The notes beneath the pieces were generated by a model. That model did not search any database and was not told where the DNA came from. It saw nothing but the letters and a program-made list of their open reading frames with translations. Of a stretch of DNA of 64,000 bases, positions 7,565 to 64,000 are shown piece by piece. The stretch spans positions 62,001 to 126,000 of the forward strand of contig JBPGPT010000020.1 of the NCBI GenBank assembly GCA_051047955.1. The letters are read 5' to 3'. This DNA is from Cystobasidiomycetes sp. EMM_F5. Its lineage: Eukaryota. Each line of letters starts with the position of its first letter. Within the stretch, counting starts at the first letter, position 1. A program made the position numbers and the translations under genes.

Positions 7565-10500
7565 CTAACGCTCGTCACGATCGCGGGTGTAATTGCCTCT
7601 ACCGCTAGCACCTCTGCCACGACTCCCACCACCTCTTCCTCCCCAGCCCTGGTCTCTCGTCATCATAGATGCAGGCCCGGACGGTATTCCTGACGAATCA
7701 CGTGCGTAAGCCTACGCTTCTTCAACTGTTTCTACAGTTTTGCTAACTTACCGTCGAATCTGCCTCTTTCAGGACGGCCCGAAGCATTCGATCGACTTTC
7801 CCCTCGGCCTTGTAGAGCTCTCGGTCCTGAGGGTGGTTCGCGTTCATAACGTCCTCTTATCGGTCCAGTAGAAGAAGGCCCATTGTATGAAGCCGGGCGG
7901 CTGGACGATTCCGAAGATCGGCACGCTAACCCGCCAGGACCGCTCGAACCGTAGCCTCCGCTGTACGCGCTATCTCTTCCTCTACCACCCGTATATGAAC
8001 CTGTCCCTCTCCCTCGTCCGCCTCGACTACTGCCTCTCGGCCCAGTAGGCGCGTTACGGGGACCAGACGGAATCGAAGACGGCGACGGAGCTCGAGGCGG
8101 TCGGATTGGCCGCTCGTAATTACCTCGCGGAGTTGCTGCTGGCACGCCATTCATGCTTTCGTAGTGTCGTGGAGGACTTCTTTGCCTGTCGGCTGCCCAG
8201 CTGCCTTGCCAGACGCCTTTTCCGTTCGCAAGATTGACGGATTCGTCCACTGGCATTGATCTTTCCGGTGTAGGCGAACGATGCGCCTTGATATCAGCCT
8301 CGCGCTCTGTTGTAGTTTTTGCCTCCTTGTCATATCCCTCTGCGTCAAGCCGTTGGGAAGCTATAGTGTGCGTTTCGGACAGCTCGGGCGAGTAGTGATG
8401 CCGAGCACTTACGCTTTCCTGGATTGGCTCTACAGACATTGGTCGTGGCTCCATGCTCTCATCCTCAAGCTGGAAGATTTCATTAGCTGACCTTTTCGCT
8501 GCGAAAGAAAGTCACATTCAACTGACCTTGACGAGTGTAGCGGAGATCTCCGAGATGTTTGGCTGTACTTCGGTGTTCACAATTGCGCTAGGGTCGGCGC
8601 TTGCACTCTCGACCTCTCCTGGCTCAAGGTCTGCTACTTCCCCTTCTTCTGCATCGATAGATCCCCCTGCAGGCTCGAGGCCATCCCCAGCCGTTGGCAG
8701 ATAAGAAGATTCAAGTGTAATTTCCTCATGACGGGTGGTCGGTGTAACAAAGTCTTGCAAGTCCAGGAATGGGGAAGGCAACCGCGCAGTGATCTTCTCA
8801 GGTGAAGAGCTTTTTGCGATATCGTACGTAGGCTGATCGGCAGCCGGAACGGCTACGACTGTGATGTTCGCCTCCTCCTGTTGCGGTAGTATCGAATGAC
8901 TCTCCGCGACGACAGACTCTGTTTGGATGTCTGCAATGTGAGGAGAAGACGCATCGACTTTGATCTCCCGAATGTCACTGTCAGCCGCTCCATCGCTTGC
9001 GGGGACCTCTGCTGTCGAAATGACCGACGTCAGGTCGCAAGTGTCGGCAGCAGGTCTTGCAAGGTCTTCCACACCTGCATCGACAAGTACAGCAGAAGGC
9101 GGCCCAGCCGCTGGCGTCAATTGTGCTGGGTTACTCGACGGAGAACCCTTGTTCCGCTGAAGATATGCAGCAAAGGAGAGTCTTGCTCGAGGCGGCGGCG
9201 GCGGTGCAGGAGCCGCCAGTATAGGCGGATTCGTCGTCTTAGTCTCATTCGGCTGGATGGCAGAGGTACCCGCTTCATGATCGTGGTCACCGGCAGGCAC
9301 CGTATGGTCTTCGATCGGTAGACGAGACGGTGTTATCGCTTCCGCTTTCTCCAGCATCGGCGTCCCAACAGGGCTGTCAACGATGCTCATGACAACATCC
9401 TCAAAACTGGAGCGTTTTTCTTCCTGCCTGCCGGTTGGCACGATTGCGGCTTGCGTATCAGCATGCTCAGCAGCTTCACTAATCACGAGCTCAGACAGTA
9501 CAGGTTTTGGTGCCGTAATACGTTGTTTGTATGCCTTGAAGCTGAGTCGCCGAGGAGGAGGAGCAGCTGGCTCGGGCGGAGGCGGTAGTAGTTCGGTCCG
9601 AGGGGAGAGGACAATGTCTGTCGTCGTTTGCACCGCATAAACGTCTGTTTCTAATGTCTTCATAACGGATTCTACGGTGTTTGAAGCTAGTTCCTCCGTG
9701 TCCGGTACGGCGCCAGTAGATGCACCAGACCTGTTAATATCGTCTTGTGCGGCAGCAGCAGCAGCCGTTGCGGGGACTGGTGGAGCAGGCGGAAGTTGCG
9801 CTGAAAACAGATCTTCCAGCAGCGGACCAGGCGAGAGCTGCTGGAGAGGAAGGGAGGACGCTATTGGGTCGAGGGTTTTCGCAGCCGTTGAGTGGCTAGA
9901 CTCCGCATCCTTTCGACCTTCTGCCGCGATGGTCTTAGGCGGTGCAGGTAATGAGTGTTCATTATGACGATCGACAGACGTCACAGGCGTTGCGGAGGCC
10001 TTGTCGTTCCGACTCATGGATGCTTGACGCTGGCTCGTCTCTAGTTGATTGGAGGTTCGCATTGTGGCCATGACTGGGCTTCGCTTTGCCTGCTTTTCAT
10101 TTACGACCTTTCGCTTTGGCGGGCGCACAATCTCCTCATCTTCCGATTCGGAAACGCCCTTCTCTCCATCTGAAGGCAGAGGAACAGTCAGATCAGAATC
10201 AGAGCTATCCCCGTCCGAGAACTCCTGCGCGGAGGGTTTGACATCGCTTGCAACAGAGGCAGAAGGTGGGATGAACAGATTTTTCAGGAAGGAAGGTATG
10301 TTGGACTGCATGTCGAATGTTTCCGCTTGTACCATCTCAGCAGCAGCCGCGCTCTGCGTTGTGGCCTGTAATGGTTGTTTCGCTGGCTGCGTAACAGGTG
10401 CTGCTACGGATTCCGACATCAGAATTGTATAATTCAGTACACATATTTAGAGTTCGTGCTTACGAGAATCTACATCCATGTCGTCACTCCGATTTTGCGT

Positions 10501-13500
10501 GTGAGTCACTTTGACGACCGTTTCGTTGGGTTCATCTTCCTCGCTATCCAGCTCCGGGCTATTGAGCAGAGGCGGCAGAGCTGGGTAAGCTTCGATCGGT
10601 TGCGCTTCCCATCCTCTACAGAGGCCGATAAGCGCGCCAATATCTGCGCGTCTACGCTTCGGTGCACCTTGTTTCTTATCCTTTTTACCTCCAGATTTAC
10701 TCGACCTCGATACCGTGGCAGACAGTGGCCGGTCCTCGGAGCTAAGAGCACTCGCTACCGCTGCTTCCAAGCCATTCAAATCGAAATCCTGCAGTGAGAC
10801 TTTGGTCACGCGGGTTCGGTTGCTGCTTTCCGAAAAGGATCCCAATTTCCACAACCAGCTTATCGCACAGTCTCTCCGCTTCTCGCATGCGCATGTATGT
10901 GTTCCAAGAAAGATCAAGCAGGTCGTAGCTGCCAAGCGGGATAGCCTGTAGAGGTGCTTCCTACAGCGCGCAATGTGTGCTTTTTGAGACAGGCTCAAGA
11001 CGGAGTAGGATGAAGTCGTCGGCACGCCATCAGAGTCTGAGGATGCTGCATTATCTGCATTGTGCCGGAAATGGTCGGGAATCTTTGGAAAGACAAGATC
11101 AGGGGAGAAGAGGAGTGTGTGCAGAGCATGTACGACGTGATCATCCGCCCAGTCAAAAGGCAAAACCAGTTCTTCACGCTTCGATATGTCTTGCAGAGCA
11201 TACAAGCCGAATGCGAGCTCGTACTGTTGACCAGTAGCGAGGTTGACGCCATCTGCATCGGCAGAGGTCGAATCGTCATGCCCATCTTTACGACGAGCAG
11301 CAACACCCATCTCTGCCATCTTGGCACGTTTATTGGCTCGACTATTAGTTGCCGGCTGAACGTTCCGTCCATTCGTCGTCAATGTCTTGCGAATGATGAC
11401 TGGCCGAATATGGACATTCGGATGACAACCCTGTCTGATGAATCTCGTTTCGTCACCCCATCTCCGCTGATCAAGCACCAGATCCCAAGGTTGTGCGATA
11501 CCTCTTGTAAAAGGTTTGAGCATCCCCATCTCGTTCCACTGATTCATCGGCTCATTACGGTACTGCTGACCAGAGACGACTTCACCGTGCATAAAGGACA
11601 GAAATGTTCCCGCGTGATGCGATGTAGTCGCAAAGACACCGTGGTACGTTGGGCGAGGATACGGAAACATCATTCCGGTTACGGCAATGGCACCACTGAA
11701 TGGCATACACGCGGGAGGAGCCAGTGCCAACGCAGCGGATGCAATTGGCTTGACGGCCGGTCGGGATTTAGCGGTCGCTGCCATGCTCGATTCGTTCACC
11801 GTGGCAATGATGACGGGCGGAACTGGTGCGGCAAGCGCGGAAGCTACGCCAGACGAAGAGTAGGCAGGAGTAGATGATCCAGACGAAGGACCAGGAGAAG
11901 TGAGACGGGATCCGTTTGTAGACAAGAAAGGAGGGCGTGAAAGATTGAGCGCAGAAGGGCGTGTAGATGCGTCGTATGAAGGCGTCTTTGCAGGCATCGT
12001 GGGTCGTGCATCCCTGCTGCCATCTGTGGACGCAGCAATCTTGGTTGAGCCAGCTTGTGAGACAGCTTGCGTCTGTACTGCAATATTCTCTGCTTCTTCC
12101 TTTACAAATTTCGCAACGAGCGCATCGATCTGTTTTTCGAGTGCCTTGTTGACGTAGCGCAACTTGTCAATCGGGGTATACTCGTACTGCCACGCCTCGT
12201 ACTTCCACTCCGTCTCGTCTTGGAATTCATCGTCGTCTGAAAGTAGACCATCCCGGACATTCAGAGTCGTCACTGGTTGTCCTTGTCCATTCTCGGCCCT
12301 CGACATCGTGGCGCCGAGCGGGAGAGCCGCAGAAAGCAACGCAGAAGACGTCTCCGGAGTAGCTGTTGTCGATTGGTCTTTGAGACCACCTGATCGACTT
12401 TTTGTCTTGAATGGATCTTTCCCACCACCACCACTACTCGGCAATGTAGGACCATCCACATTTTTCGCGTCTGCAGTGACTGCCGCCAGCGCTAGACTTG
12501 CTGCCGACGTCAATTTTGCAGAGGCAGAAAGAGCCTGGCCTGCAGATTTCCTTCGTCGATTCGCCGCACTGCCCGTCGTGGCAGATCCATTCACGTTTGC
12601 ATCCTTCTGAGAAGACATGGCAGGACCAGGCGTTCCTGGTACCATACGTGCATCATCTTTGGTGAAGGAGGAAGAAGTGACAAAACTTCCTGGTGCTGCT
12701 TTTCGTTTTCGAGAGTTTGTACTGCTACTTAATGAGGTGTGCTGACTGGTGCTTGGAATAGTCCTTTCGGCCAGAGGTGGAATGTCAGGCATTGCAGAAG
12801 GGGAAGCGGATTTATTATGTCTCGATATTCCAATGACGCCACGATGGACGGTGTCGTCGAGAAATGTGCCAGACTTGATGGACGCACCAGCTTGAGTGTA
12901 TTGAGGAGCGCTCGACTGCGTCTGATTGAGGTATTGCTGATATTGCAGGGTGTTTGGATGTTGCTGTAGATGAGGGGGCAGACTCTGGTCGATTCTCGAG
13001 ACTGTAGAGATGACTGGCATCGACGTAGCGTGTTTGGATGTTTCTCTCGTTCGATGAGACATGGGCGGACTTCCATCGGACGTGTTGGCATACGGTATCC
13101 TCTCCAGGCTCTTCTGCGCTGCTATCCCTCTCGCTTGTGCTAGCAGTTCATCCTCCCCATTCCCACCATCTTCGCCTGTCTGCGTGAGAGTGAGTCGGTC
13201 GTAGCCTTCTGGGATATACGGATCGGAAGATTCGATGCCCGTCATCCCACTCGAAGAAGGAGGGAGACCGTACAACTCCCTCTCCCTCCTCAGCCTCGCC
13301 TCCTCCTCCCTTCTCAACAACTGCACCCTCTCCGCACGCACCCTGTCCTCCTTACCGACTCTCACCTTTGGATCGCACATTGGACATATAAACGTCTCTG
13401 GTACGCTCTCTGGCGATATCGATACACACAGTCCGTGCAGCCAGCCATAGCATTCCTCGCATTGGATGGTAAATCCGTCATCGTCGTCGAATGGACATAT

Positions 13501-14370
13501 ACAGCGTATCAGACTGCTATCCTCGCTGAGCCGGACGGGGGGCGTATGCATGTGTTCGTCGATGATGGGGGTGTTGGTTAAAGTGGACGTGGATGCCTGT
13601 TTCGAGCGGACGGGGGGCGTATGCGTGTGTTCATCGACGATGGGGGTGTTGGTTAAAGTAGCCGTGGATGCCTGTTTCGAGACATTGTTGGACGGAGCTC
13701 GAGTTCGCTTTCGCGGTGCTGTAGCTGCGCGTCCAGGTACAGAGACTGGAGATGGACGAGGTGCTGCTGATGGAGGTCGCTGGTATTGCACTGGCTGTAA
13801 ATTCATCGACGAAGGATAGGATGGGTGGGTAAAGTGTATTGGGGGGAGAGGGGGCAGCTGAGGGAGAGGGAGTTGCCTCGACTGCTTGTCGGGGGAGTAG
13901 GGTCCAGCGTTTGACAATATGGACGCGAGGGATGCGGGCAGACCGAGAGAGGGTGGGTTGAGCAGTTCGTGCGAGTATGTACTATTCACCAGCGGCGGCT
14001 GCTGGGTGTTTGTATTTGCACTTGTATTTGCACTTGTGTTCCCACTCCCCTCGTCTCCAGACTTGAGCTCAGCCTTGAGCTTCACTCCGCCGACTTCACC
14101 ACTCCCATTACTGCTACTCGCCTCAATGTCGAGCACTATCGTCTCGGTCTCCCAGCTGACGGGCAGCGTCTCTGTCCCGAATGTAGACGTCGACACTCTG
14201 GGTATTGCAGGTCGAGGGGGGCTGTGAGGAGTGATTGCAGATGGGGCATGACTGTGGATGTTCAGATCATCCTCCACTGTTTTACTACTGCCTCTCTCAT
14301 CCTCCACCCCCTTCTCGTCCACCACCTCGTACGCCGCTGCGCTGAGGAGATCCAGCAGCCCTCCCGACAT
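7565..14370 (-). CDS. PHD-finger + SET-domain protein (Set3/Set4/KMT2E-like), ~4 exons
   Basis: PHD finger [28 protein letters not shown]...FICPMC; SET-like DQRRWGDETRFIRQGCHPN and ALQDISKREELVLPFDW. ORFs 10447..14370, 8518..10419 and 7732..8454 are separated by intron-sized gaps, and a final RGG-rich exon ends at TAG 7567-7565. Confidence 0.8.
13532..13681. repeat. In-frame 75-bp tandem duplication (2 copies) in the Set3-like CDS
   Basis: Unit cggacggggggcgtatgc...gatgcctgtttcgag at 13532-13606 and 13607-13681, encoding SKQASTxTLTNTPIxDEHxHTPPVR twice. Confidence 0.95.
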
Positions 14371-14738
14371 GGTGAGCTTAGAGGGATATGGACATGGTTA
14401 TGGTCATGAATGGTGCAGAGTGTAGTGCATGCTGCATGGTGGGGCTGTGAGTTGGGCGAGTTGAGAGGCAGAGTATCAACAATTATGCATTGTAGAGATA
14501 TACCAAAGACATGATTAGTCTATACGAATACACTCAGAGTAGCCGTGATATGATGAATGATACTGCAGCAATGAGCTCGAGAAGTGATTACATCCACTCT
14601 CTAACTCTCTGCTCGCTGTCCTCCTTGCTGTCCTTCGATCGATGCTGCAAATTATCGCACCCTTGCACCCCTCCAACCCTCATCAATATACAAATCACCC
14701 ATTCTTACTCAGTCTTCATCTAGACTGCACTCGTCACC

Positions 14739-17700
14739 ATGGCGGCCTCACAGAGGGGAGGGAAGCGAGACTTGTCTGGGTGAGTTTGTCGAGTTGTGGG
14801 CTGACGATGGGAGAGTAGAGAGGTCTAAGACAACAACGCTGTATGTATTTACCCACTGACTATGCACTGCTGTCTAAATATGCAGGTTTCAATACTCGGC
14901 AATGTCGTCGCTCGTCCTCAACGCCGACCATCGGGGAAGACGGAGCGACGCAGAGCCAACGGGAGAGCCAGAGTCGCTCGTAGGGAGGGTGAATGTAAAG
15001 CAGATGGGGAGCAGAGCATTCCGAGAGACGGCTGGTCAGGAATCGGCAAAGCGAAAGTCCAAGCTGGCAGACAAGGGCAACAGTGATATCTCAAACAACA
15101 AGCGAGCGAAAATGTCGAGTACAACGACGACATCTTCAATGCAAGCGAGGGATATCATTGCTGCCGCAGATCAGATGGAGGGAATGGATTACATTCCCCG
15201 AACAGCAGAGACTCGCCAGACGTACGAGCTCATCCTCTCGGCCGTCCATCAAGCTTTTGGGGGTGAGCAGCCCCAAGACGTCCTCCGCGACGCAACAGAC
15301 TTTGTCATTGTCACCCTCAAGGACGACTCGCTCAAAGACTACGACAAGAAGAGGGATATATCGGCAGCCATCCCTGGCCTGACGACTGAAGTCTTTACGA
15401 CACTCGTAGGACTGGGAAAGCGGATAAACGACTTTGGAGCAGACGATCCCGAGAATGCAGCGACTCGCGATCCAGATCAGGAAAAGAGAGACGGTCGTAT
15501 CGACGACGACGTCGGTGTCGCTGTCGTGTTTGACGAGGACGAACAGACCGGCATCAGGATGGGCGATATCGGAGACGACGACGAGGACGAGGACGCCGCG
15601 TTTGAAGTGCGCGACGAGTCTGACGACGACGAGGATGGAGAGAGTGGTGCACGAGAGGACGCCAATGCCGCTATACAGGCCGAGAACGGAACAGGTGACG
15701 ATGAACAAGGTAACGAAATCATCATTGGCGACACTACATCCACCCAATCTACCACCTCTCGCAAAGCCAAAAAGGATTCCGACGACATACCCGCAAGGGA
15801 TATTGACGGATTCTGGCTACAGCGTCTCGTAGCACAATCCTACCCAGACCCACTAGAGACGGCCGAAAAGACGTCGGAAGCAATGTCGCTCCTCTCTGCA
15901 GACACAAACATGCGAGACTGCGAAAATGCACTCATGGATCTCTTTGACTATGACAAGTTTGCACTCGTAAAGACGCTCACTAAAAACAGGGAAAAGATTG
16001 TATGGTGCACCAAACTCGCGAGATCCGATGAGCAGGGTAGGATGGATGTACAAGTCACGATGCGCGAAAAGGGAGTAGGTTGGATCCTGAAAGACCTTGC
16101 GAGCAGTAGTGGTAGTGGTGGTGAAGGTTCCGCTACGAATGGCTCCACTAACGCAAACATGCAAATCGATGCACCGGCGGGCGTGTCGAGCGTTCCCAAA
16201 GCAAACATTGCAGCTGGATCCCTCGTACAGCCCAAAGGGACTGTCGATCTAGAGAGCATGGCATTCTCTCAAGGTGCACGACTCATGTCAAACAAGCAGT
16301 GCCGACTTCCCGAAGGTTCATTCAAGCGATCAAAGAAGGGTTACGAGGAGATTCACATTCCAGAGCCAAAGAAGAGGACAGTCAAACCTGGTGAACTCGT
16401 TCCAATCACAGACCTTCCAGAGTGGGCGAGAGCGGCCTTTCCAAATACAAAAGAGCTCAATGCCATTCAGAGCAAAGTGTATCCCGTCGCATACGGCCAA
16501 GATGAGCCTATCCTCATGTGCGCCCCCACCGGTGCAGGCAAGACCAACGTAGCGATGCTCACGATCCTCAATGAGCTGAGCAAACACCGCGACGAGCGGA
16601 CTGGGACGTTTGACGTCGACAGTTTCAAAATCATTTACATCTCTCCAATGAAGGCTCTCGTACAGGAACAAGTCGGGTCGTTTTACGCTAAACTCGAATA
16701 CCTCGGTATCAAAGTGGCTGAACTTACAGGCGACCGATCTCTTACAAAGCAGCAGATTCAGGATACACAAATCATCGTGACGACACCAGAAAAGTGGGAT
16801 GTCATTACTCGTAAATCCACAGACACGTCGTATACCAACCTCGTCCGACTCATCATCATTGACGAAATTCATCTCCTGCACGACGATCGTGGTCCGGTAC
16901 TCGAAGCTGTAGTAGCACGTACTATCCGCAGAATGGAGCAGACGCAGGATTATGTCCGTATCGTTGGTCTTTCTGCCACTCTGCCAAACTACGAAGATGT
17001 AGCTCGTTTCCTCCGCGTCAACCCGAAGAAGGGCCTCTTCCACTTTGATGCAACGTACAGGCCGTGCGTCCTTAAACAGCAGTTTGTCGGAGTCACCGAG
17101 AAGAAGGCACTCAAGCGCTTCCAGGTCATGAATGAAGTCTGCTACGAAAAAGTGCACGAGCAGGTCGCGAAAGGCGAACAGGTCTTGGTGTTTGTGCACT
17201 CCCGCAAGGAGACGGCAAAGACTGCAAAGTTTATCCGAGATACTGCGCTAGAAAAGGAGACTATAACAACATTCATCAAACCCGACGGAGGGACACGAGA
17301 GATTCTCCAAGATGTCGCAAATACCTGCACTGACGGAAACTTGAAAGACTTGGTTTCTTTTGGATTCGGTATCCATCATGCCGGAATGAACAGAGAAGAC
17401 AGAGAATACGTAGAGGAACTCTTCTTGAAGGGACACATTCAGGTCCTCTGCTCCACGGCGACCCTCGCCTGGGGTGTCAATCTTCCCGCTCACGCAGCCA
17501 TCATCAAGGGAACTCAAATTTACAATCCGGAAAAAGGCAGATGGACAGAACTTTCGCCACAGGATGTCTTACAGATGCTTGGTCGTGCCGGACGCCCGCA
17601 GTACGATACATACGGAGAGGGTATCATTATCACAAATCATGGCGAGCTCCAATACTACCTGTCAATGATGAATCAGCAACTGCCCATCGAATCGCAGTTT

Positions 17701-20700
17701 GTTTCCAAGCTATCAGACAACCTCAATGCCGAGATTGTCCTCGGCACTATTCGCAATCGCGATGAAGCCGTCACTTGGCTGGGCTATACATACTGGTTCT
17801 GCAGAGCACTCGGCTCACCATCGCTATACGGTGTTCCCGCAGACTTCCGAGACGATGATCCTTACCTTTTGCAGAAACGAGCGTAAGTCGGCATGGGTGT
17901 TCACAACATTTCGCGCACTACTAATCGTCGTTTTACAGCGATATCATTCACACGGCAGCCTCCATTCTCGAGAAGTGTGGTCTGGTCAAGTACGACCGAC
18001 GAAGTGGTCAGCTGCAAAGCACTGAATTGGGCCGTATCGCTTCGCACTACTACATCACCCCCAGCTCCATGTCCACTTACAATCAGCATCTTCGCTCCAC
18101 TATCGGCTTCATCGAGCTATTCCGCGTCTTTGCGCTGTCTGAGGAGTTCAAGTACATTCCGGTCCGCGAGGAAGAAAAGATTGAACTCAGTCGCCTGCTG
18201 GACCGAGTACCAATCCCCATCAAAGAGAGTGTAGAAGATCCCGCTGCCAAGATCAACGTCCTCTTGCAGGCCTACATTTCTGGTTTGAAACTGGAAGGTT
18301 TCGCTCTGATGACCGACATGGTCTACATCACGCAATCCGCTGGACGTATCCTTCGAGCCATCTTTGAGATTTGCATGAAGCGTGGCTGGGCCAGCTTGAT
18401 GTACAAGGCTCTCGACATGTGCAAGATGGTCGAGCAACGAATGTGGCCATCGATGACTCCGCTTCGACAGTTCCCTGGTATTCCTGCAGATATCGTAAGG
18501 CGCGCGGAGCGGAAAGAGTACCCTTGGTTCCGCTACTTTGACCTTGAACCTGCTGTTCTTGGAGAACTGATCGGTCTACCAAAAGCTGGCCGACTGGTTC
18601 ACCAGCTCGTACACAAATTCCCGAAAATCGAAATCGTTGCTCATGCTCAACCTATTACTCGGTCGATGCTGCGAGTCGACCTCACACTGACACCGGACTT
18701 TGAGTGGGACGAGCGGATACATGGCAATACGCAGTCATTTTGGGTCGTCGTTGAAGACGTCGACGGCGAGCACATTCTCTTCAGCGAGCAATTTATGCTG
18801 CGAGAGCGGTTCGCGGTAACGCAAGATGAACATTACCTCACATTCACAATTCCTGTTCTTGATCCTCTACCGCCCAATTACTTCATCACGGTTGTGTCCG
18901 ACAGATGGCTCGCATGCGAGACGCGCTTGCCGCTAGTCCTACGTAACCTGATCCTGCCAGAAAAGTTTCCTCCGCCTACTACGCTCCTCGAACTTCAACC
19001 TCTTCCAACATCTGCTCTACACAATGCCGACTTCGAGGCCATCTACTCGTCAACTATACCCAGCTTCAATAAGATTCAAACTCAGGTCTTCCAAGCGCTT
19101 TATACCACAAACGATAATGTGTTTGTCGGAGCGCCGACAGGCAGCGGTAAAACCATTTGTGCAGAGTTTGCCTTACTGCGACTGTGGTCACAGCGCGAGC
19201 CTGGTAGAGCAGTGTGCATCGAGCCTTTCCAGGAGGTCGTCGACATGCGCGCCGCGGAATGGAAGGCCAAGTTCGGAGAATTGCAGGGCGGAAAGACCAT
19301 CTCAATCCTGACTGGCGAAACTACAGAAGATTTGCGAAGGCTTAAGGCTGCCGATGTTATTATCTGTACACCATCGCAATGGGACGTACTATCTCGCAGA
19401 TGGAAGAACAGGGCGGACGTCAAGAACATCGCACTGCTGATTGCCGATGAGATTCAGATGATTGGCGGGTCCGATGGCCCAACCTACGAAGTGATTGTTT
19501 CAAGAACACGCTACGTAGCAAAGGAGACTGGCAATGATACCAGGATTGTCTGTTTCGGAGTCTCGCTTGCAAACGCTCGCGACTTGGGAGAATGGATGGG
19601 CGCCACTTCGCAAACCATCTTCAACTTCTCTCCGAGCGCCAGGCCACTGCCAATGGAGGTTCATATGCAGAGCTTCAACGTTCCACACTTTCCATCCTTA
19701 ATGATTCAGATGGCGAAACCGGCATACCTTGCAATCGTAGAATATGCTCAGACTCGGCCGACTATAGTCTTCGTTCCGTCGCGCAGACAGTGTCGGCTGT
19801 CAGCGATGGATATTCTCAGCTACTGTCGTGGAGATCAGGACGAAACGCGCTTCTTGAATATGGAGGCTAAGGACTTGGCACCACACTTGGCGAGGATATC
19901 CGACGAGGATCTGCGCGAGACTTTGGAGTATGGCATTGGCTTCTACCATGAAGGTTTATCGAGGCAGGACAAGCTCATAGTGGAACGTTTATATCAAGCC
20001 GGAGCCATTCAGGTCGTCGTCGCCAGCAAAGACACTGCCTGGAGCATGTCCCTCTCGGCTTATATGGTGATACTCATGGGCGTACAGACGTATGAAGGTA
20101 AGCTGATTGATCTAAGCCTTGAACGCTATCGCTGAAGTACCACATTTCAGGTAAAGAACATCGTTACGTAGACTATGCATTCACCGATGTGCTGCAAATG
20201 ATGGGTCGTGCGTGCAGACCAGGCATCGATGAAAGCAGTCGATGTGTCATCATGTGTCCACAGACACGCAAATCCTTCTTTGTGAAGTTCCTGAGCGAGG
20301 GTTTGCCGATTGAGTCGCATCTCCCAATGCAACTACACGATCACTTCAATGCAGAAATCGTTACGAAGACTATCGAAGACACACAAGGTGCTGTCGATTG
20401 GTGTACATGGCAATGGTTCTATCGTCGGCTGGTTGCAAATCCTTTCTACTACAACGTGAGTCACGCTTTGAAGACCGCCTGCGGGCGAAAACTGAATTCA
20501 TTTTTGTATACACAGATACAAGGAGCAACACATAATCACATTTCAGAGTACCTTTCCGATCTCGTTGAGACAACGCTGAGCGATCTCAATAAGGCGAAGG
20601 CTATCGAGATTGTGGACGAAATGGATGTAGCACCATTAAATTTAGGCATGATTGCCGCATACTACAACATACATCACGAGACTGTCGCCATCTTCAACGA

Positions 20701-21631
20701 ATCCCTAACGGAGAAGACCAAACTTCGAGGTCTGCTGGAGATAGTCTCGGCCGCTACAGAATTCGAAAGCATTCCTATACGCCACCACGAGGATGCAATT
20801 TTACGTAAAATCTACGACCGTCTACCTCTCAAGCTACCTCAGCCGGACTTCAATAAGCCAGACACCAAGACCAACATATTATTACAAGCTCACTTCTTGC
20901 GACTTACACTACCTGCCGATCTGGCCTCGGATCAAGCCATTATTCTTGGCAAAGTCCTCAATCTACTCAGCGCTTGCGTTGACGTAATGTCATCGAATTC
21001 CTTCATCAATGCCTTGCAAGCTATGGATCTGTCGCAAATGGTCGTACAGGCAGTGCTCAATACAGACTCGCCCCTCAGACAGATCCCACATTTCTCCAAA
21101 GAAGTCCTGGATAGGTGTTCTGCGGCTGGAGTCAGAGAAGTTGCTGACATTGCCGAACTGGAAGACGCCGACCGTATCAAGTTATTGCAGATGACGAATC
21201 GGCAGCTACAGGATGTCGCGCGCTTCTGCAATGACTATCCGGATGTTGAGCTGTTGCATGAGGTCGAGGACCCGGATGACCTACACGCTGGGTCACCCAT
21301 TAATGTCAAAATCAGCCTGGAAAGAGAAGTCGATGAGGATTCGCAAGGAGCAGTGGTCGCGCCATTCTATCCGGGTTCGAAGAGCGAAAGTTGGTGGCTC
21401 GTTATCGGAAAAAGCAACGCCCTGCTGGCCATCAGAAAATTGCCCTTCAAACCCACCTACGATCCTGTTACACTCTCGTTCCAATTACCACAGGGCAAAC
21501 ACGATCTCACCTTGTACTGCGTTTCTGACAGCTACATGGGTGCCGATCGCACGGTAGAGTTCAGTCTGGACGTCAAAGAAGGAGAAGAGTCAGACGAGGA
21601 TGATGACTCTGATGATGATATGGAAGAGTAA
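14739..21631 (+). CDS. BRR2: U5 snRNP 200 kDa Ski2-like RNA helicase Brr2
   Basis: MAASQRGGKRDLSG|FQYSAMSSLVLNAD; first helicase cassette APTGAGKT/DEIH/QMLGRAGRPQYD, second cassette APTGSGKT/DEIQ, Sec63 domains, acidic tail. ORFs 14902..17886, 18027..20135 and 20189..21631 are joined by GT-AG introns. Confidence 0.97.
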
Positions 21632-25209: not shown

Positions 25210-28200
25210 ATGACATCCCAGCGCTCGCAGTTGCTGCTGGTCGTGCCATCTCGGGGCGCTGACCATCACCACGGCCACAATCATGGCCCAGCTGGCACTG
25301 CTGCTGTCTGGCGGGACTTTGACGTAGTGCAGCAGGGCCTTGTGCTGCCTGCATATCAGCTGTATGCTGTGGAGCAGTGGTGTGTTGGTGCTGATGAGAG
25401 GCGACGTTTTGTTTGATATCAATTCTGAGGCCATAATCCCGCATTGACAGGCTGGTCGACCGCCAGAGGACAGATACGATCGTGCACAGAACTAATAATC
25501 CATCTCACAAGGTATGCGTGTGGACGTAGAGTCAGCTTCACAGAATAACGGCGCGCTTTCCAGATTATCATCGATGTCATTCGGCCTAGAGGTGCTTCGT
25601 ATGAAGAACGAAAGGCCGTGTGGGACGACACTATCGAGAAGGCAGGTCTTCACACTCTTTCGCAGTGTACAAGCTAAGAATTTCCGACTACTTCTCTAGG
25701 CGCAGCGAGATGGCGCACGTCCGAAGCACACTGAGCTCGGCGTCATCCTTGCAGTCGACCTTACAGAATTTCCGCAAAGTCTGGGGCCCATCCTAATACC
25801 AGACGGATGTTTCGCCAGTGCAAAAGAGTCTCTCTATATCAACGTTAATCTGCGGAGACTCGGAGCTGGAAATAGAAAGCACACTCTGTCCTTGAGCGAT
25901 CCAAGGTTAGTCTAATCTGGGACGACGAGTTTGATTGCGAGCTGAATGTCCTCCGCAGTGCATCGCAACAAGAACGACTGAAGCAGTTGTACAAGCTGCC
26001 AGACTCTGCTATTGGTGCCAACTTCTCGATGACAGTACTCCGGCTAGTATCGCTGGCGCAAGCAGCGCTGTCCCTCTTCGACCTGGGTCCCAACGCCGGT
26101 GGAAATTATTCAGAACCCGATGGGTTGCGTGAGTGAGTACTTTCATAGCATTCCACCTGCTTCTAAGCCTTGCCGCTTCCAACAGTGTGCGATGTGACGG
26201 TCAATTGCATCATGAACTGGAGATTGGATGTCGCTCACGAGTCAGTCGGGCCAGACGTGCGTATACTTCATTTTGATCCGATTACACAACTCTAAGCCGT
26301 CATTTCGGCATTCAGTATGATTTGACGCAATCTGCTGTAGACGATTCGTGTAAATTGCCACCCGACACTCTTGCTTCCCTACTATCCGTCGTGATATGCA
26401 CGAGGAATAGATTGATGGAGCTAGGTGTAAATCACGTACGCACAGACGACACGTCCGTCGACAGGTATTTACAATTGTAATCCGCAGGTCCCTTCAGATC
26501 CCTTTGTCAATCGAGCTTCTTTCGTTCAGGCCTACAAATCCTTTTTAGTAGGCGACAATTTGCTCCTTCGGCTAGGTCTGCACTGACCGCCATTTGCAGC
26601 GCGCTTCGCGACAAAGCGGAGAAGCTCATTACTTGACCAGACGCGGAATCCGGTATATCCAGGCGCAAAGTGCTCGTATTGCCAAAGACGGTTTCAAGCG
26701 CGCTTTACGGCATAGATTCGATGATATGCGTGGTGACACTACCCGTGCAGCATTCAGCGAAGAAACGTCGAGTATCGTCTCTTTCATCGAGACATTGCAG
26801 AATGTGGCGGCGGATGATATTCCCTCGGTGACTTCGCTATGGCGCGGCAGTCTGAAGAGCAGTAGGGATTCTCGTTTCACAAAGACTTTCAGGACGAGTC
26901 ATTCCAGAGACGATTTTGACAGTGCCGACAAAGTCCCTATTGGATATTCCCCAAATGACGGCATTGCCAGTGATAGTGAGGAGGATGAGTGGATTCCGTC
27001 TAGGTTGCTGAAGGGTGTATCCAAGCGCACAAAGAAGCTTGGTGGCAATATGACTGGGTATGCAGGATGATACGAAATTGGATGTGTTAGGCCTGACAGA
27101 CTTGCTTCCTCAGCCTCCTACTACCACGTCCTGAAGGAATGCATCCTCGAAAGCAGCATTCACTTGCCGTGGAGTGAGTAAACAGGATACTCTGCTACAT
27201 GAAATGCAGACTCATTACTCATATTAGGGTCGAAGATGTTCGGAGGAGGCATCGACGTCAAGTACCTCTCCGTGAGTTACGCCAGCGATCCGCCTCGACT
27301 TCCGCTTACCATCTTCTGCAGAAGAGGATTATACCTCAGAACTTCGCGAGTCCGCGTCACATTCCAAAAGCAGCGCCATCCCCTTGTACTCTCCTGCGGA
27401 AACCTTCACAACGCTAGGAGAACCCGACGAAAGTCCCTTGGCTACCCTTCGACCACCCAGTATGAGAAGGGTCGTCTCCGATTCGCATGGTGATCCACAC
27501 TATCTGTCTCGCTCGACAACGGCCGCGATTACACCTCCCAAAGCTTCTATCCCACAAAGACGTAGATACAGCTTCGATTGCGAATATAACCTCCCCGAAT
27601 TGGATGAGATGTTGTCGATTCAGGCCATGCATCTCAGTGCCGAATTGCAGATGACAAGATACCGCCTACGACAGCGCGAGAAACAGTTGGCCAAGACTGT
27701 ACAGACGTTGACCATTATCGAAAAGGCATATGATGACGCTATCAAGATGATGGAGCCCCCTATGCTAAGGCGGGTAAATGACCTGAAGAAGCTGAACGAG
27801 AAGCACAAGAATTTCGCTGCCGCTATGAATGTGTTACTTCCCGAATCGATACGTCACAGAGAATGGTCCGCATCAAGTACGCAAACGCTTGTATTTGGAA
27901 GATCCGAGGACGCCAAAGGCGAAATCGCTCAATTGAGGGACAAAATGGAGACGCTAAACTATAACGACGGTGATGTGCTGGCGGCAAGGATCAGATCAGT
28001 AGCTGACAAGTGGGAAGAGTTCGACAGCGTTGTCGGTGGCAGCGAGATCCTCTACGACCCTTCGATCGTCCCGACTCGCCAGGTCGGCGAGATTGTTGTA
28101 GCCCTTCAAGGAGCCATCATCAAGTCTGAAAAATCCGGCTTGAAAAAGGCGTACAGTATGCTGTGCATGGCTAGGGGAACTCTGAAATATGTAAAACTTA

Positions 28201-28250
28201 GATTTTGGTCGCATTTCAGGCGTGCTAAGGATGTTGTAAAAACCGAATGA
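25210..28250 (+). CDS. Stb2/Stb6-like (Sin3-binding) protein, many exons
   Basis: N-terminal LVLPAYQLYAVEQW resembles the Stb2/Stb6 N-terminal motif. Several GT-AG introns follow, and a coiled-coil last exon (ORF 27384..28250). Internal exon structure is only partly resolved. Confidence 0.6.
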
Positions 28251-28450
28251 AATTTGGATTTGATTTAGCATTGCGCCGATGTCGTGACGACGGATACAAC
28301 TGCAAGAGAACTCGTACGCGGCGACGATACCGGCTGAGCTGAAGTAAACCGTCGCGAAACGGAAAACGGCGAGACAAAATACGCTCGATAGATCCTTATG
28401 AGAATTGGTTTGTTATAGATCTGACCGTGCTTGTCGTGGCTAAGCCTTTT

Positions 28451-28589
28451 GCTTTCTTAGCTCAATAAGTCTTTCTCGATTCCTCAGGGTCGGCCCCGAC
28501 TAATCTGGTTTCTGTCATTACGTGGTAGAGCGCCAGTCTTGTATCATCGTGACAACTGGAGGTCGTTCGTTCGATCCGGGCATGAAGCA
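28451..28589 (+). tRNA. tRNA-Thr(UGU) with two introns: 57 nt at position 14/15 (28465-28521) and 10 nt at canonical 37/38 (28544-28553)
   Basis: Joined exons give a 72-nt cloverleaf: GCTTTCT TA GCTC A|GTGGTA GAGC G CCAGT CT TGT A|A ACTGG AGGTC GTTCG TTCGATC CGGGC ATGAAGC A. Invariant U8, A14, G15:C48, G18G19, U33, T54-T55-C56 and A58 are present, as is the C32:intron G(-3) A-I pair for the 37/38 intron. Confidence 0.9.
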
Positions 28590-28601
28590 TAATCTTGCAT
28601 A

Positions 28602-28606
28602 TTTTT
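28602..28606 (+). terminator. Putative RNA polymerase III terminator (T5) downstream of tRNA-Thr
   Basis: TTTTT begins 13 nt after the discriminator A73. No run of 4 or more T occurs inside the tRNA gene or its introns. Confidence 0.55.
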
Positions 28607-29318
28607 GCTGCAGCCGCTTCCTTTCATCCCCGCTTTCAATTTTCCCTGCAAGCTTAAGAAATGTCAACATCAGGAATAGTGCTTCCTTCTGAGATAGATA
28701 CATGATAAACATCATCTTGAACCTGCAAGGAGCGCTCTCTTCGAGTCCTATTGAAATACTAGCATTACTGCCATTTTACTTGGTGGATTTACTTTTTCTC
28801 GAATTCGAGGAACGTATATACGCAACATGTACAGCACATTTCGTCATCATCAACTATTTCGTTTGCCTTGCAGATGATCACCACATTGCTCCATAATAAA
28901 TTACCACCCTGGGAGCGACTTGTCCAGCGTTCGCGTCTGTACTCGACTTCTCCGCAATCCTGATGCAAGTACCATGCATTGAAGGTGAGATCTGTTTAAG
29001 CTAATTGGCGCGTTGTGCGTTGCTCTAGCCATGCATTCAGGCCATTGAGACTTTTGGGGTAATGCACAGAGGCGGGTCACTCCTTTTCAATTGTAGATTA
29101 TTACTCGCATCTAGATCTATTGGCAAGTATCTCCAAATACCGGTACGAGTACATTCACAAACATTGCTGCGGGTGACGTTGTTTATACGGCAACAATTGA
29201 CCTTCTTCTATCGATATTTGCTCATCAAGAACGCAGACACCCGACGGGCTGGAGAAGATGGTGTGCACTGGCCAAGGGCTGGGCTATATTATATTGTTGC
29301 CCGGTACACACATAATAC

Positions 29319-30077
29319 TTACATCTGAGGGCCATTTACTAACGCTTTCCGCCTATCTCTAGCCTTTTGTATCATATCTTTCGTAAAATCCTCATCATTC
29401 GCATCGATATCTTCTTGCTTTTGCATTTTCTGCTTCTTCCGTATTGGCACTGGTAGGTCGTCGTAAGCTGCTGGTTTTCGAAAAGCTTTTGTATCGGCCT
29501 TGTCTGCTTTCGTGGCTTCGGTTTTCGTGGGCCGCTCGCTTGCGTTTTCTACCGTCTTCTTCTTCCGCTTCTCCGGTGGTGCATCAACATCGACGTCCTG
29601 CATTTCGTGATCATCGTCTGACGCTTGTTGTTTGGCTTTGCCCTTGGCCTTAAATGTGGCGGATCAGAATCATTTGAGGGGTAGATGGAGAACTGGGCAA
29701 GCACACCTTGCCAAAACTCATGCGACCGTTTGTCATACCACCGGTATTTTGCCAGCTCTGAGCTTGCATCGACCCTGATAAACTAGGAAACGCTAGATAG
29801 CTGGCTTCCGTTGTCACCGATCTGCAAATAAATTGGCATTGTCAGCATCGTCATATACAATATGAACAGCATGTTCTTACGGCCTAGCTGCGCGCCCTGC
29901 TCTCGACGTGGAAGCAACAGGAGCATCAGATGCATTTTCTGACTTGACAGGAATTTGTTGCTCAGCCTGAGCTGATATTACAGAGGGAGCTGGCGTCGGC
30001 GCAGATGCAGCTCTCTTCTGCGCCGCACGCTGCATAAACTTCAGATTCAGAGTATTTCCAGATAATTGCGCAGGCAT
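29319..30077 (-). CDS. MPP6-like exosome-associated protein (small, basic, multi-exon)
   Basis: N-terminal LSGNTLNLKFMQRA resembles the Mpp6 LxMKFMQR motif; an internal exon reads YLAFPSLSG...GRMSFG; Lys-rich C-terminus. Confidence 0.55.
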
Positions 30078-30273: not shown

Positions 30274-32178
30274 TTATGCCAAAGCGAAAAAGGATTCCGC
30301 ACTTTTACCTCTCCATGGAGGGGACAGCCTGTATCGTGCGTGTGATACCGTCAATCGATTATTCAATACGAAATTCGGACCAACTGACTGAGGTAAAGTT
30401 CGGGATCCGCGTAATGCTGCCCTGAAGTACGGAAATGGCGACATAAATACTGGCATGAGTGCAACCATTCCTAGAGGATGTCGGTAGACGGCGCATGCTA
30501 TTGCAGCTGATAGTGCTGCCTTTGACAATGCCCGTGGCGAGAAAGCCGCAAATACTCGCGGTGTAAGGTGGTAGGAGACGGACATAAGTGTAGACAGGAA
30601 CGGTAAGCCCATCTGACTCCATACACTGGGGATCATTATACTGTTGAGTCTTTGTGCAACTTCAATAGCACTCCTGTTCAGCGAATCTGTCAGCTCCACT
30701 TGCTGCGCTGCGGTGGCTTGGATAGTCATCTGAAAGTAGCTATTCAATTGACCATAGAAGACTCAAAAGCCATCATATTTACCTCTTGCTGTTCCGCGAT
30801 GGACAGTATCTCTACTCCCTTTGACTGGAGAGTGACCAGCAGAGTGGCCAGATTCTGACTCTCACGACTGATTCTATCGAGTTGCATGGCTTGATTCTCG
30901 ACGTGCTGGCCAACAAGGCTCTGAAGCAGGTGTTATATTTTTCCTGCCATCATTATTCAAAACTCACGATATTTTGCGTCAATTCGCTCAATTGCGCTGA
31001 AACGATGTTGTACATTCCAGATAGGCGCTCAACGAGTTGAAACATCAGGTTGTGTAAAGTTACGTCATGCTGAGAAGCAGTTATTCATGCTGATATCGCT
31101 GCCCGGTAGTCTTACATACTTCGTGAAGTTGCTGCTGCAAAAGCCGTGTCTGGGTGCGTGTGACCTCGGCAGCAGTATCGCGTAGATGCATAGCATGATT
31201 GCCGAGGTTCGCCTCCAAGTGTGCTGATATCTATTTTCGCTGTCCCTTCAGCCAGAGATCATATGATCCGGAGACTGGACTCACGATAGGAAGAGCCGCC
31301 GTCATTGCGGATGTGACATTGTTGGCGACAAGTTGCTGCTGACGAGCTTCTTCTACTGCCTTGGCTATTGTGCTCAGCATCTGTGCTTGTAGCTGTTCTT
31401 GGGAAGACGCGACTCTCTTCAGTAGCTGTCCCGCTCGGTCAGCCATTTGAGCTTTGAATTCATCAGATAGATACCCACCTCCGTTGTATTTTCGAGATTA
31501 TTGATGGCTGTGTCTGTAGTCTTTTGCCGTTGTTGATGCTTCTTCTGCTCCTCACTGTCTCGTGCAAGTCGGTTCTCACTCTCCTGGAGTATGCCTTTCA
31601 GAAAGTCACTTTGCATCGAGGTCATATTACGATACAAGTTCTTGATGATTGCAGTGTCCTGCCAGCGACTGAGGCTTGAACACATCTTGACGATGTCACG
31701 GGCGAAAGCGACGTATGACGACCAAAATTGCGGGGATCGCGCAAATGCTCTGCAGCACTTCAGTAAGAAATGTGTAAGCATGCAGTTGCATAACCTACTC
31801 GACGCAGATCGATACCGGAATACTCGGACTGCGCATCCAGTCTGTACATTCTTGTGGAACCTTGAGGCCCGCTGCTTTCTCGACTTCACAGATAGTGAGG
31901 GCGGCTGCAAGACGCATACGATCCTCTTCTCGATTTTTGAGAATGTCGCAGTCTGAATGCCACGACTTGACGAAAGATCCATCGCATGTGAATGCGCTTC
32001 TTTCGGCAGCGACGTTTTGAATCCAAGTATTGACCTGTGTCTCCGACTCTGTGTTTGATGGTAGTAAAGCTCTAGGGCCCTGCGCAGGCTGTGATGCCCA
32101 TCGCGGGAGCAGCGTCGAATGCACAATCACGATGTGCGTCAGCATAAGGATAGAGATGGAAGCGGAGATGGTCTTCAT
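30274..32178 (-). CDS. KAR5: Karyogamy/nuclear fusion protein Kar5/Tht1 (GEX1/Brambleberry family)
   Basis: Signal peptide, then the Cys-rich domain CD...DC...RMRLAAALTICEVEKA..VPQEC...CVE|AFARSPQFWSSY...C, coiled coils and a hydrophobic C-terminal region. Confidence 0.8.
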
Positions 32179-62758: not shown

Positions 62759-62957
62759 GGAGTGTACTACAGTCCAGTACTCATTGAGCGTTGTACTTTT
62801 ATGCTTGACCCTGTTGACGTTCGATCGCGACCGGTCTGACAGGGCCACCTTCTGATGAACAACGGCAGGGCACCAACGGACTCCGACCACCTGTCAGCCT
62901 GTTAACGAACCAGGAAATAAAGCGCACAATCACTTTAAAGCTGCAACAAAGCTCAAC

Positions 62958-64000
<1,043 letters not shown>

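Follow-up and report, generated by a model that had tools for sequence, protein, structure and literature searches.

In a 64-kb stretch of DNA (contig JBPGPT010000020.1, positions 62,001 to 126,000 of the forward strand; hereafter the window, in which all coordinates are counted), we found a nuclear transfer RNA gene, tRNA-Thr(UGU), that lies on the + strand at 28451-28589 and is divided into three exons by two interruptions. The best explanation of this arrangement would be a gene with two unrelated introns: one of messenger RNA (mRNA) type, which parts A14 from G15 within the D loop, and one of tRNA type at position 37/38. The first of these, an insert of 57 nucleotides (nt) at 28465-28521, is very probably of spliceosomal-intron nature, and we hold the chances to be nearly even that it is a real, working U2-type AT-AC intron of the spliceosome. 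We also consider it plausible, at rather under an even chance, that the gene yields a functional tRNA which would need the spliceosome and then the tRNA endonuclease and ligase, and that such genes form a hidden class, overlooked by tRNA finders, in Pucciniomycotina yeasts. The split tRNA-Thr(UGU) itself was confirmed as a statistically solid observation.

Read along the + strand, the 5' exon (28451-28464, tRNA positions 1-14) comprises the 5' strand of the acceptor stem (1-7), T8 and A9, the D-stem strand GCTC (10-13) and A14, and it takes its place in an ARAGORN cloverleaf after removal of the insert. The middle exon (28522-28543, positions 15-37) follows the insert and carries the rest of the D loop with G18 and G19, the D-stem strand GAGC, the 5' strand of the anticodon stem, the anticodon TGT and A37, as placed by ARAGORN and by alignment to the Rfam tRNA model RF00005. 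It is separated by a canonical 10-nt tRNA intron (28544-28553) from the 3' exon (28554-28589, positions 38-73), in which the same two programs place the 3' strand of the anticodon stem, the variable loop AGGTC, a T arm with the loop TTCGATC that includes the B box, the 3' strand of the acceptor stem and the discriminator A.

The gene had been proposed in an earlier reading of the sequence (the original prediction), which named it tRNA-Thr(UGU) at 28451-28589, described a 10-nt intron at 37/38 with a pair between C32 and an intron G, and expected that standard tRNA finders would probably miss or mis-score it. The intact locus was indeed missed by both finders tried. ARAGORN reported no tRNA in the intact 64-kb window, with its intron mode either on or off, and Rfam searches with Infernal found no tRNA in the intact 64 kb at the gathering threshold and no tRNA match in 28300-28750 at E≤10. 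A comparison of finder runs with and without the insert, was suggested along with the prediction: silent on the intact gene, ARAGORN -i called tRNA-Thr(tgt) once 28465-28521 had been cut out, and it reported the intron tcatcgtgac at 37/38. In this intron the outer helix, formed by the anticodon stem, has 4/4 pairs, and the G at intron position -3 is matched by C32, as described. When the RF00005 search was begun at 28522, it returned a 5'-truncated match to model positions 15-71 (24.1 bits, E 0.0015), a score below the 29-bit gathering score of the model. Since model position 15 falls exactly on 28522, this base corresponds to tRNA position 15. One further call in the window, a low-threshold ARAGORN "tRNA-Asn" at 62889-62979, was rejected for its poor D arm.

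A 5' exon of the kind found here is rare in the window. We defined it as a 14-mer with at least 6 of 7 pairs to the 3' acceptor strand, 4/4 D-stem pairs, T8 and A14, and found 4 such 14-mers among 127,972 window positions, the real exon counted. The occurrence of such a 14-mer by chance within about 150 nt upstream would have odds of a few in a thousand.

The exon borders were examined against a homology set. A metagenome scan with a 20-mer from the middle exon yielded 59 loci with 63 matches; one match (L012) was not a tRNA, and the other 62 were uninterrupted Thr(UGU) genes that also lack an intron at 37/38. One of these (L052) is cut by a contig end and was excluded, leaving 61 gene copies for comparison. 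The nine bases created by joining positions 14 and 15 of our gene (positions 8-16) were identical in 57 of the 61 copies, and so, in 57/61, were positions 37-47; positions 17-36 were the search pattern, so that identity there holds by construction. Base 28464 differs from base 28521, and for this reason sliding the borders alters the spliced product. On this comparison, the borders of the insert are fixed by homology and not by ARAGORN alone. The original prediction had held that removal of exactly 28465-28521 restores the D arm and that shifted borders break A14 or the G15:C48 pair. The homologues uphold these borders through their match at positions 8-16; ARAGORN by itself does not single them out, for when each border was moved by at most 4 nt it still called a tRNA in 28 of the 81 resulting combinations.

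Several of the uninterrupted Thr(UGU) genes (L008, L018, L019, L032 and L037) come from long contigs of aquatic metagenomes. The one in L019 is followed, at a distance of no more than about 10 nt, by another tRNA-like sequence, which suggests a tRNA cluster.

The insert itself reads like a short mRNA intron. It opens with a hexamer resembling a 5' splice site, ATAAGT (28465-28470), which is the consensus GTAAGT with G1 changed to A; it contains the sequence GACTAAT at 28498-28504, within which the branch-site-like CTAAT (28500-28504) offers the A at 28503 as a potential branch point, at a distance of 18 nt from the insert end; and it closes with a pyrimidine-rich tail (28505-28521) whose terminal TAC is a YAG with G changed to C. 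The opening hexamer fits the major consensus apart from the A at +1, and its last base, C, can pair with its first base, A. For comparison we gathered candidate mRNA introns from the window by a heuristic, not verified by RNA, that started from a donor of the form GTRNGY, took the YAG giving the shortest intron of 45-70 nt, and asked for 60 open codons to the left and to the right (n=38). These have a median length of 56 nt (range 45-68), close to the 57 nt of the insert. A CTRAY motif whose A stands 10-30 nt ahead of the end occurs in 19 of the 38, at distances of 11-26 nt, as compared to 6.2% of random 57-mers from the window, and the branch-like A of the insert falls inside that spread. The signals at both ends, the branch motif and the match in length to mRNA introns had all been part of the original prediction and were read again in the sequence; its description of GTAAGT as the donor of this genome did not hold up, as this hexamer opens 2 of the 38 candidates and the donors here are of the more general form GTRNGY.

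We next asked how often such a combination of signals appears in the window, using a lenient template with a start of [GA]T R N G Y, a CTRAY motif whose A precedes the end by 10-30 nt, a YAG or YAC end, and termini that match each other. This template fitted 3 of the 127,886 57-mers on both window strands: two were GT-AG, and the third, the sole AT-AC, was the insert. Even after multiplication by the 28 border choices that ARAGORN tolerates, the chance of such intron likeness stays below one in a thousand. Leaving the insert length free between 45 and 75 nt makes matches to ATAAGT...CTRAY...YAC much easier to obtain. A second segment of the form ATAAGT...CTGAC...TAC, 58 nt long, is found at 30584-30641 on the + strand; it lies inside a 162-amino-acid (aa) open reading frame (ORF) of the minus strand and is best read as chance.

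Several observations touch on the composition of the insert. On both strands of the window (128 kb) we counted 3 copies of ATAAGT and 19 of GTAAGT, relative to a uniform expectation of about 31 each, so that the two hexamers are scarcer than expected, and ATAAGT markedly so. At its 3' end (28507-28520) the insert resembles the 5' exon in 6 of the first 7 bases and in 8/14 overall; this likeness could have arisen by chance, the tract being T-rich, or could be the trace of a local duplication. The gene for the spliceosomal helicase Brr2, described below, contains a candidate intron at 17883-17938 (56 nt, GTAAGT...ACTAATC...ACAG) and a second candidate at 20098-20150. The first seven bases of the former are the same as those of the tRNA insert except for the initial G, and the motif ACTAATC is common to both.

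Other origins for the insert were considered and set aside. An intron of the U12-dependent AT-AC type would show ATATCCTT at its 5' end together with the branch motif TCCTTAAC 10-20 nt from its 3' end. The insert starts with ATAAGTCT, has no ATATCC start and no TCCTTAAC, and CTAAT is its only branch-like motif; the absence of both U12 signals had been noted in the original prediction as well. The insert is not a repeat or an introner within the window, where it has no other copy and where its best other matches are 9 nt long. Nor is it a GT-AG intron of an antisense gene: its reverse complement starts with GTAATG yet ends with TTAT. The free fold of the 139-nt precursor gave a z-score of -0.77 and was uninformative.

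These features suggest a pathway in which the gene would be transcribed through both introns up to TTTTT at 28602-28606, 13 nt past the discriminator, giving a precursor of about 140 nt that is probably a Pol III (RNA polymerase III) transcript. A T run of this type marks the end of Pol III transcription, and the one here is a putative terminator. Pol III would most likely be recruited by way of the B box, which is intact, and of an A box that is preserved by half; alternatively, Pol II (RNA polymerase II) might read through from the upstream + strand gene. The spliceosome would then remove 28465-28521 as a lariat with its branch at A28503, and a non-Watson-Crick pair between A1 and C(-1) would stand in for the usual G1 and G(-1). 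Only after removal of the insert would the D arm and the L-shape fold, after which RNase P and RNase Z could trim the ends, and the tRNA splicing endonuclease and ligase would remove the 37/38 intron last. The tRNA endonuclease measures the mature domain of its substrate and requires an intact D arm, and it is this measuring that would place the spliceosomal step first. A contact between Sen54 and the D arm is mentioned in PMC4090602.

A number of observations weigh against a working gene with a spliceosomal intron. In the spliced tRNA the acceptor stem has 6/7 pairs, with a C6 x U67 mismatch, and two of the 5/5 pairs in the T stem are G-U. The spliced cloverleaf has an energy of -17.5 kcal/mol, and each of the 17 distinct comparison genes folds more stably than this (-18.8 to -28.8 kcal/mol, median -24.4). 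With regard to transcription, the A box is broken by the insert between its seventh and eighth bases, and a TTTT lies directly 5' of position 1 (28447-28450), a run that any Pol III transcript begun further upstream would need to traverse. The B box in the T loop is intact, the TTTTT stands downstream, and no run of 4 T is found inside the insert or the gene. Engineered Pol III transcripts are reportedly not spliced in mammalian cells. A metagenome scan for the same D arm carrying an insert of 40-70 nt gave 0 matches, and all 62 tRNA matches of the 20-mer scan were uninterrupted; these matches look plant- or alga-like and do not come from close relatives. The termini of the insert are also of a rare kind. 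U2-type AT-AC introns number 24 of 610,067 in five species (PMC1557818), and AT-AC introns are much rarer in fungal annotations than in those of animals or plants (PMC7072748). As AT-AC ends are rare for a working and a dead intron alike, they do not decide between these readings.

The strongest rival explanation, to which we assign a substantial probability though one well below even, is that the gene is a dead or dying copy: an mRNA-type intron, or a complementary DNA copy of a tRNA that had undergone reverse splicing, would have entered a single gene of the Thr(UGU) family, would be spliced poorly or not at all, and intact copies would supply the tRNA. The C6 x U67 mismatch in the weakest cloverleaf of the comparison set and the split A box would suit such a copy. 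So would the loss of both terminal G of a normal intron, as a change of G1 to A alone blocks splicing. Moreover, insertions in the D or T arm of eukaryotic tRNA genes are generally taken for pseudogenes (PMC4090602). Set against this, the core of the gene shows no decay, as seen in the identity of positions 8-16 and of positions 37-47 with 57/61 uninterrupted genes, and the T loop, the C32:G pair of the anticodon intron and the downstream TTTTT are all intact. The changes at the termini match precisely the pair known to compensate each other, and the remaining intron signals have all been retained; under neutral decay this combination with an untouched core is improbable, by our estimate about 1e-4 or less. 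In addition, the host lineage has working introns on record in small RNA genes (PMC5855946). A lineage with mRNA-type introns in such genes, of which one is a Pol III gene, raises the prior for a spliceosomal intron in a tRNA.

We regard as quite unlikely a further explanation, in which the insert is a non-canonical tRNA intron of the sort known from Cyanidioschyzon merolae, nucleomorphs and archaea, cut out by an endonuclease (that of tRNA splicing or a different one) before tRNA ligase seals the exons. Introns in the D arm do exist in nucleomorph and red-algal tRNA genes, and the excision of such introns has been confirmed by reverse transcription PCR in Guillardia theta (PMC4090602); in our gene, too, the 37/38 intron already depends on the endonuclease. 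Such an intron would be expected to form a bulge-helix-bulge (BHB), which we took as two 3-nt bulges holding the splice sites, a 4-bp helix between them and helices flanking them. At the insert junctions the central, outer and inner helices have 2/4 pairs each, and no other exon-intron helix of more than 4 bp was found nearby, whereas the 37/38 intron of the same gene, used as a control, gave 3/4 (including C32:G) and 4/4 pairs. An intron of BHB type was thus ruled out, in line with what had been predicted for these junctions. The nucleomorph introns measure 3-24 nt (PMC4090602) as compared to 57 nt here, and excision by an endonuclease would leave the fit to the mRNA-intron template as an unexplained coincidence. 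Least probable of all is that the insert is retained in a tRNA-like RNA with an expanded D loop or resembles an intron by chance, given chance rates of about 2/127,885 57-mers for the template and about 3/127,971 positions for the 5'-exon 14-mer, and given that a 57-nt insert in the D loop would block the contact between D and T loops that every cytoplasmic tRNA needs.

The tRNA gene lies between two convergent genes, as a + strand ORF is found upstream and a minus-strand ORF downstream. The upstream neighbour, an ORF of 324 aa whose stop at 28250 precedes the tRNA gene by about 200 nt, has no Pfam family, and an Atlas search with it gave scores below 0.9 and nothing narrower than fungal. The 3' end of the downstream neighbour is reached about 730 nt after the tRNA gene. 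Further away, the gene for Brr2 occupies 14878-21631 on the + strand in three ORF blocks with PWI, plug, DEAD and Sec63 domains, and a long minus-strand ORF at 10447-14397 with a PHD finger and a SET domain resembles a histone methyltransferase.

Both protein and metagenome matches bear on the identity of the organism. When a 719-aa piece of Brr2 was compared, its best named relatives all belonged to Microbotryomycetes (Pucciniomycotina), with 72-76% identity, and came from Sporobolomyces, Leucosporidium, Rhodosporidiobolus, Pseudohyphozyma, Microbotryum and Rhodotorula; another protein reached 84%. In three phyllosphere or plant DNA metagenome runs we found single contigs of 151-184 nt, 99-100% identical to the window, at 27487-27794 and 28771-29999, and none of the contigs of these runs covered the tRNA gene. 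These pieces indicate that the organism or a very close strain is present at low abundance on plants. Together with the Brr2 relatives, they point to an organism that is a Pucciniomycotina-like yeast or fungus of leaf surfaces.

If the insert is indeed a working spliceosomal intron, a tRNA that passes through the spliceosome before it folds would join two splicing systems on one small RNA. It would be the second natural case, after U6, of a spliced Pol III product, and would provide a natural substrate for splicing of A1...C(-1) termini by the major spliceosome in a fungus. It would also support the gain of introns by reverse splicing into abundant RNAs outside the spliceosome. Counts of tRNA genes in such yeasts may be too low, seeing that ARAGORN and Rfam/Infernal both missed this gene. 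A paper from 2025 assigns spliceosomal introns to Pol II transcripts and regards them as having no relation at all to tRNA introns (PMC12530127). We found no description of a spliceosomal intron in a tRNA gene in the PMC open subset and bioRxiv, a search that may miss subscription papers.

The closest parallels to a spliceosomal intron in this gene come from other small RNAs of fungi. By the titles of reports by Takahashi from 1993 and 1996, the U1, U2 and U5 small nuclear RNA (snRNA) genes of Rhodotorula hasegawae are said to contain spliceosomal introns, and by a 1990 title of Frendewey the B box reportedly lies inside the U6 intron of S. pombe. R. hasegawae (now Erythrobasidium hasegawianum) was placed by taxonomy look-up in Pucciniomycotina, the same subphylum as the closest named relatives of the window. 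That spliceosomal introns are known in fungal snRNA genes, as the original prediction stated, is borne out by PMC5855946: S. pombe's only U6 gene carries an intron which the spliceosome takes out, and U6 is a product of Pol III, fungal U6 genes have up to four introns, and the U2, U5 and U1 genes carry such introns as well. In these snRNA genes and in the small nucleolar RNA U3, as in our tRNA, a short intron with a 5' site, a branch and a 3' site lies inside a conserved non-coding RNA, and the likeness to U6 would extend to transcription if the tRNA gene is read by Pol III. The differences are that U6 introns have canonical sites (PMC5855946) whereas the tRNA insert is AT-AC, and that the tRNA gene, unlike U6, holds a second intron of tRNA type. 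Furthermore, a tRNA is no part of the spliceosome, so that the argument from proximity to the active site does not apply to it.

With respect to its termini, the insert resembles the U2-type AT-AC introns of human SCN4A and SCN5A, which likewise follow the major consensus except for the A at +1 and the terminal C and lack U12 motifs; AT-AC introns that depend on U2 are known and do function (PMC1557818). The human examples are part of Pol II pre-mRNAs and their splicing has been shown by experiment, whereas the insert here is a candidate intron and lies in a tRNA gene. In its position, the insert recalls the tRNAs of C. merolae, of cryptophyte and chlorarachniophyte nucleomorphs and of archaea, which also combine a D-arm intron with one at 37/38 and are missed by standard finders (PMC4090602, PMC3728597). 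The introns of C. merolae and archaea are defined by a BHB, and those of the G. theta nucleomorph are 3-24 nt long; in contrast, the insert described here has 57 nt, no BHB and the signals of an mRNA intron.

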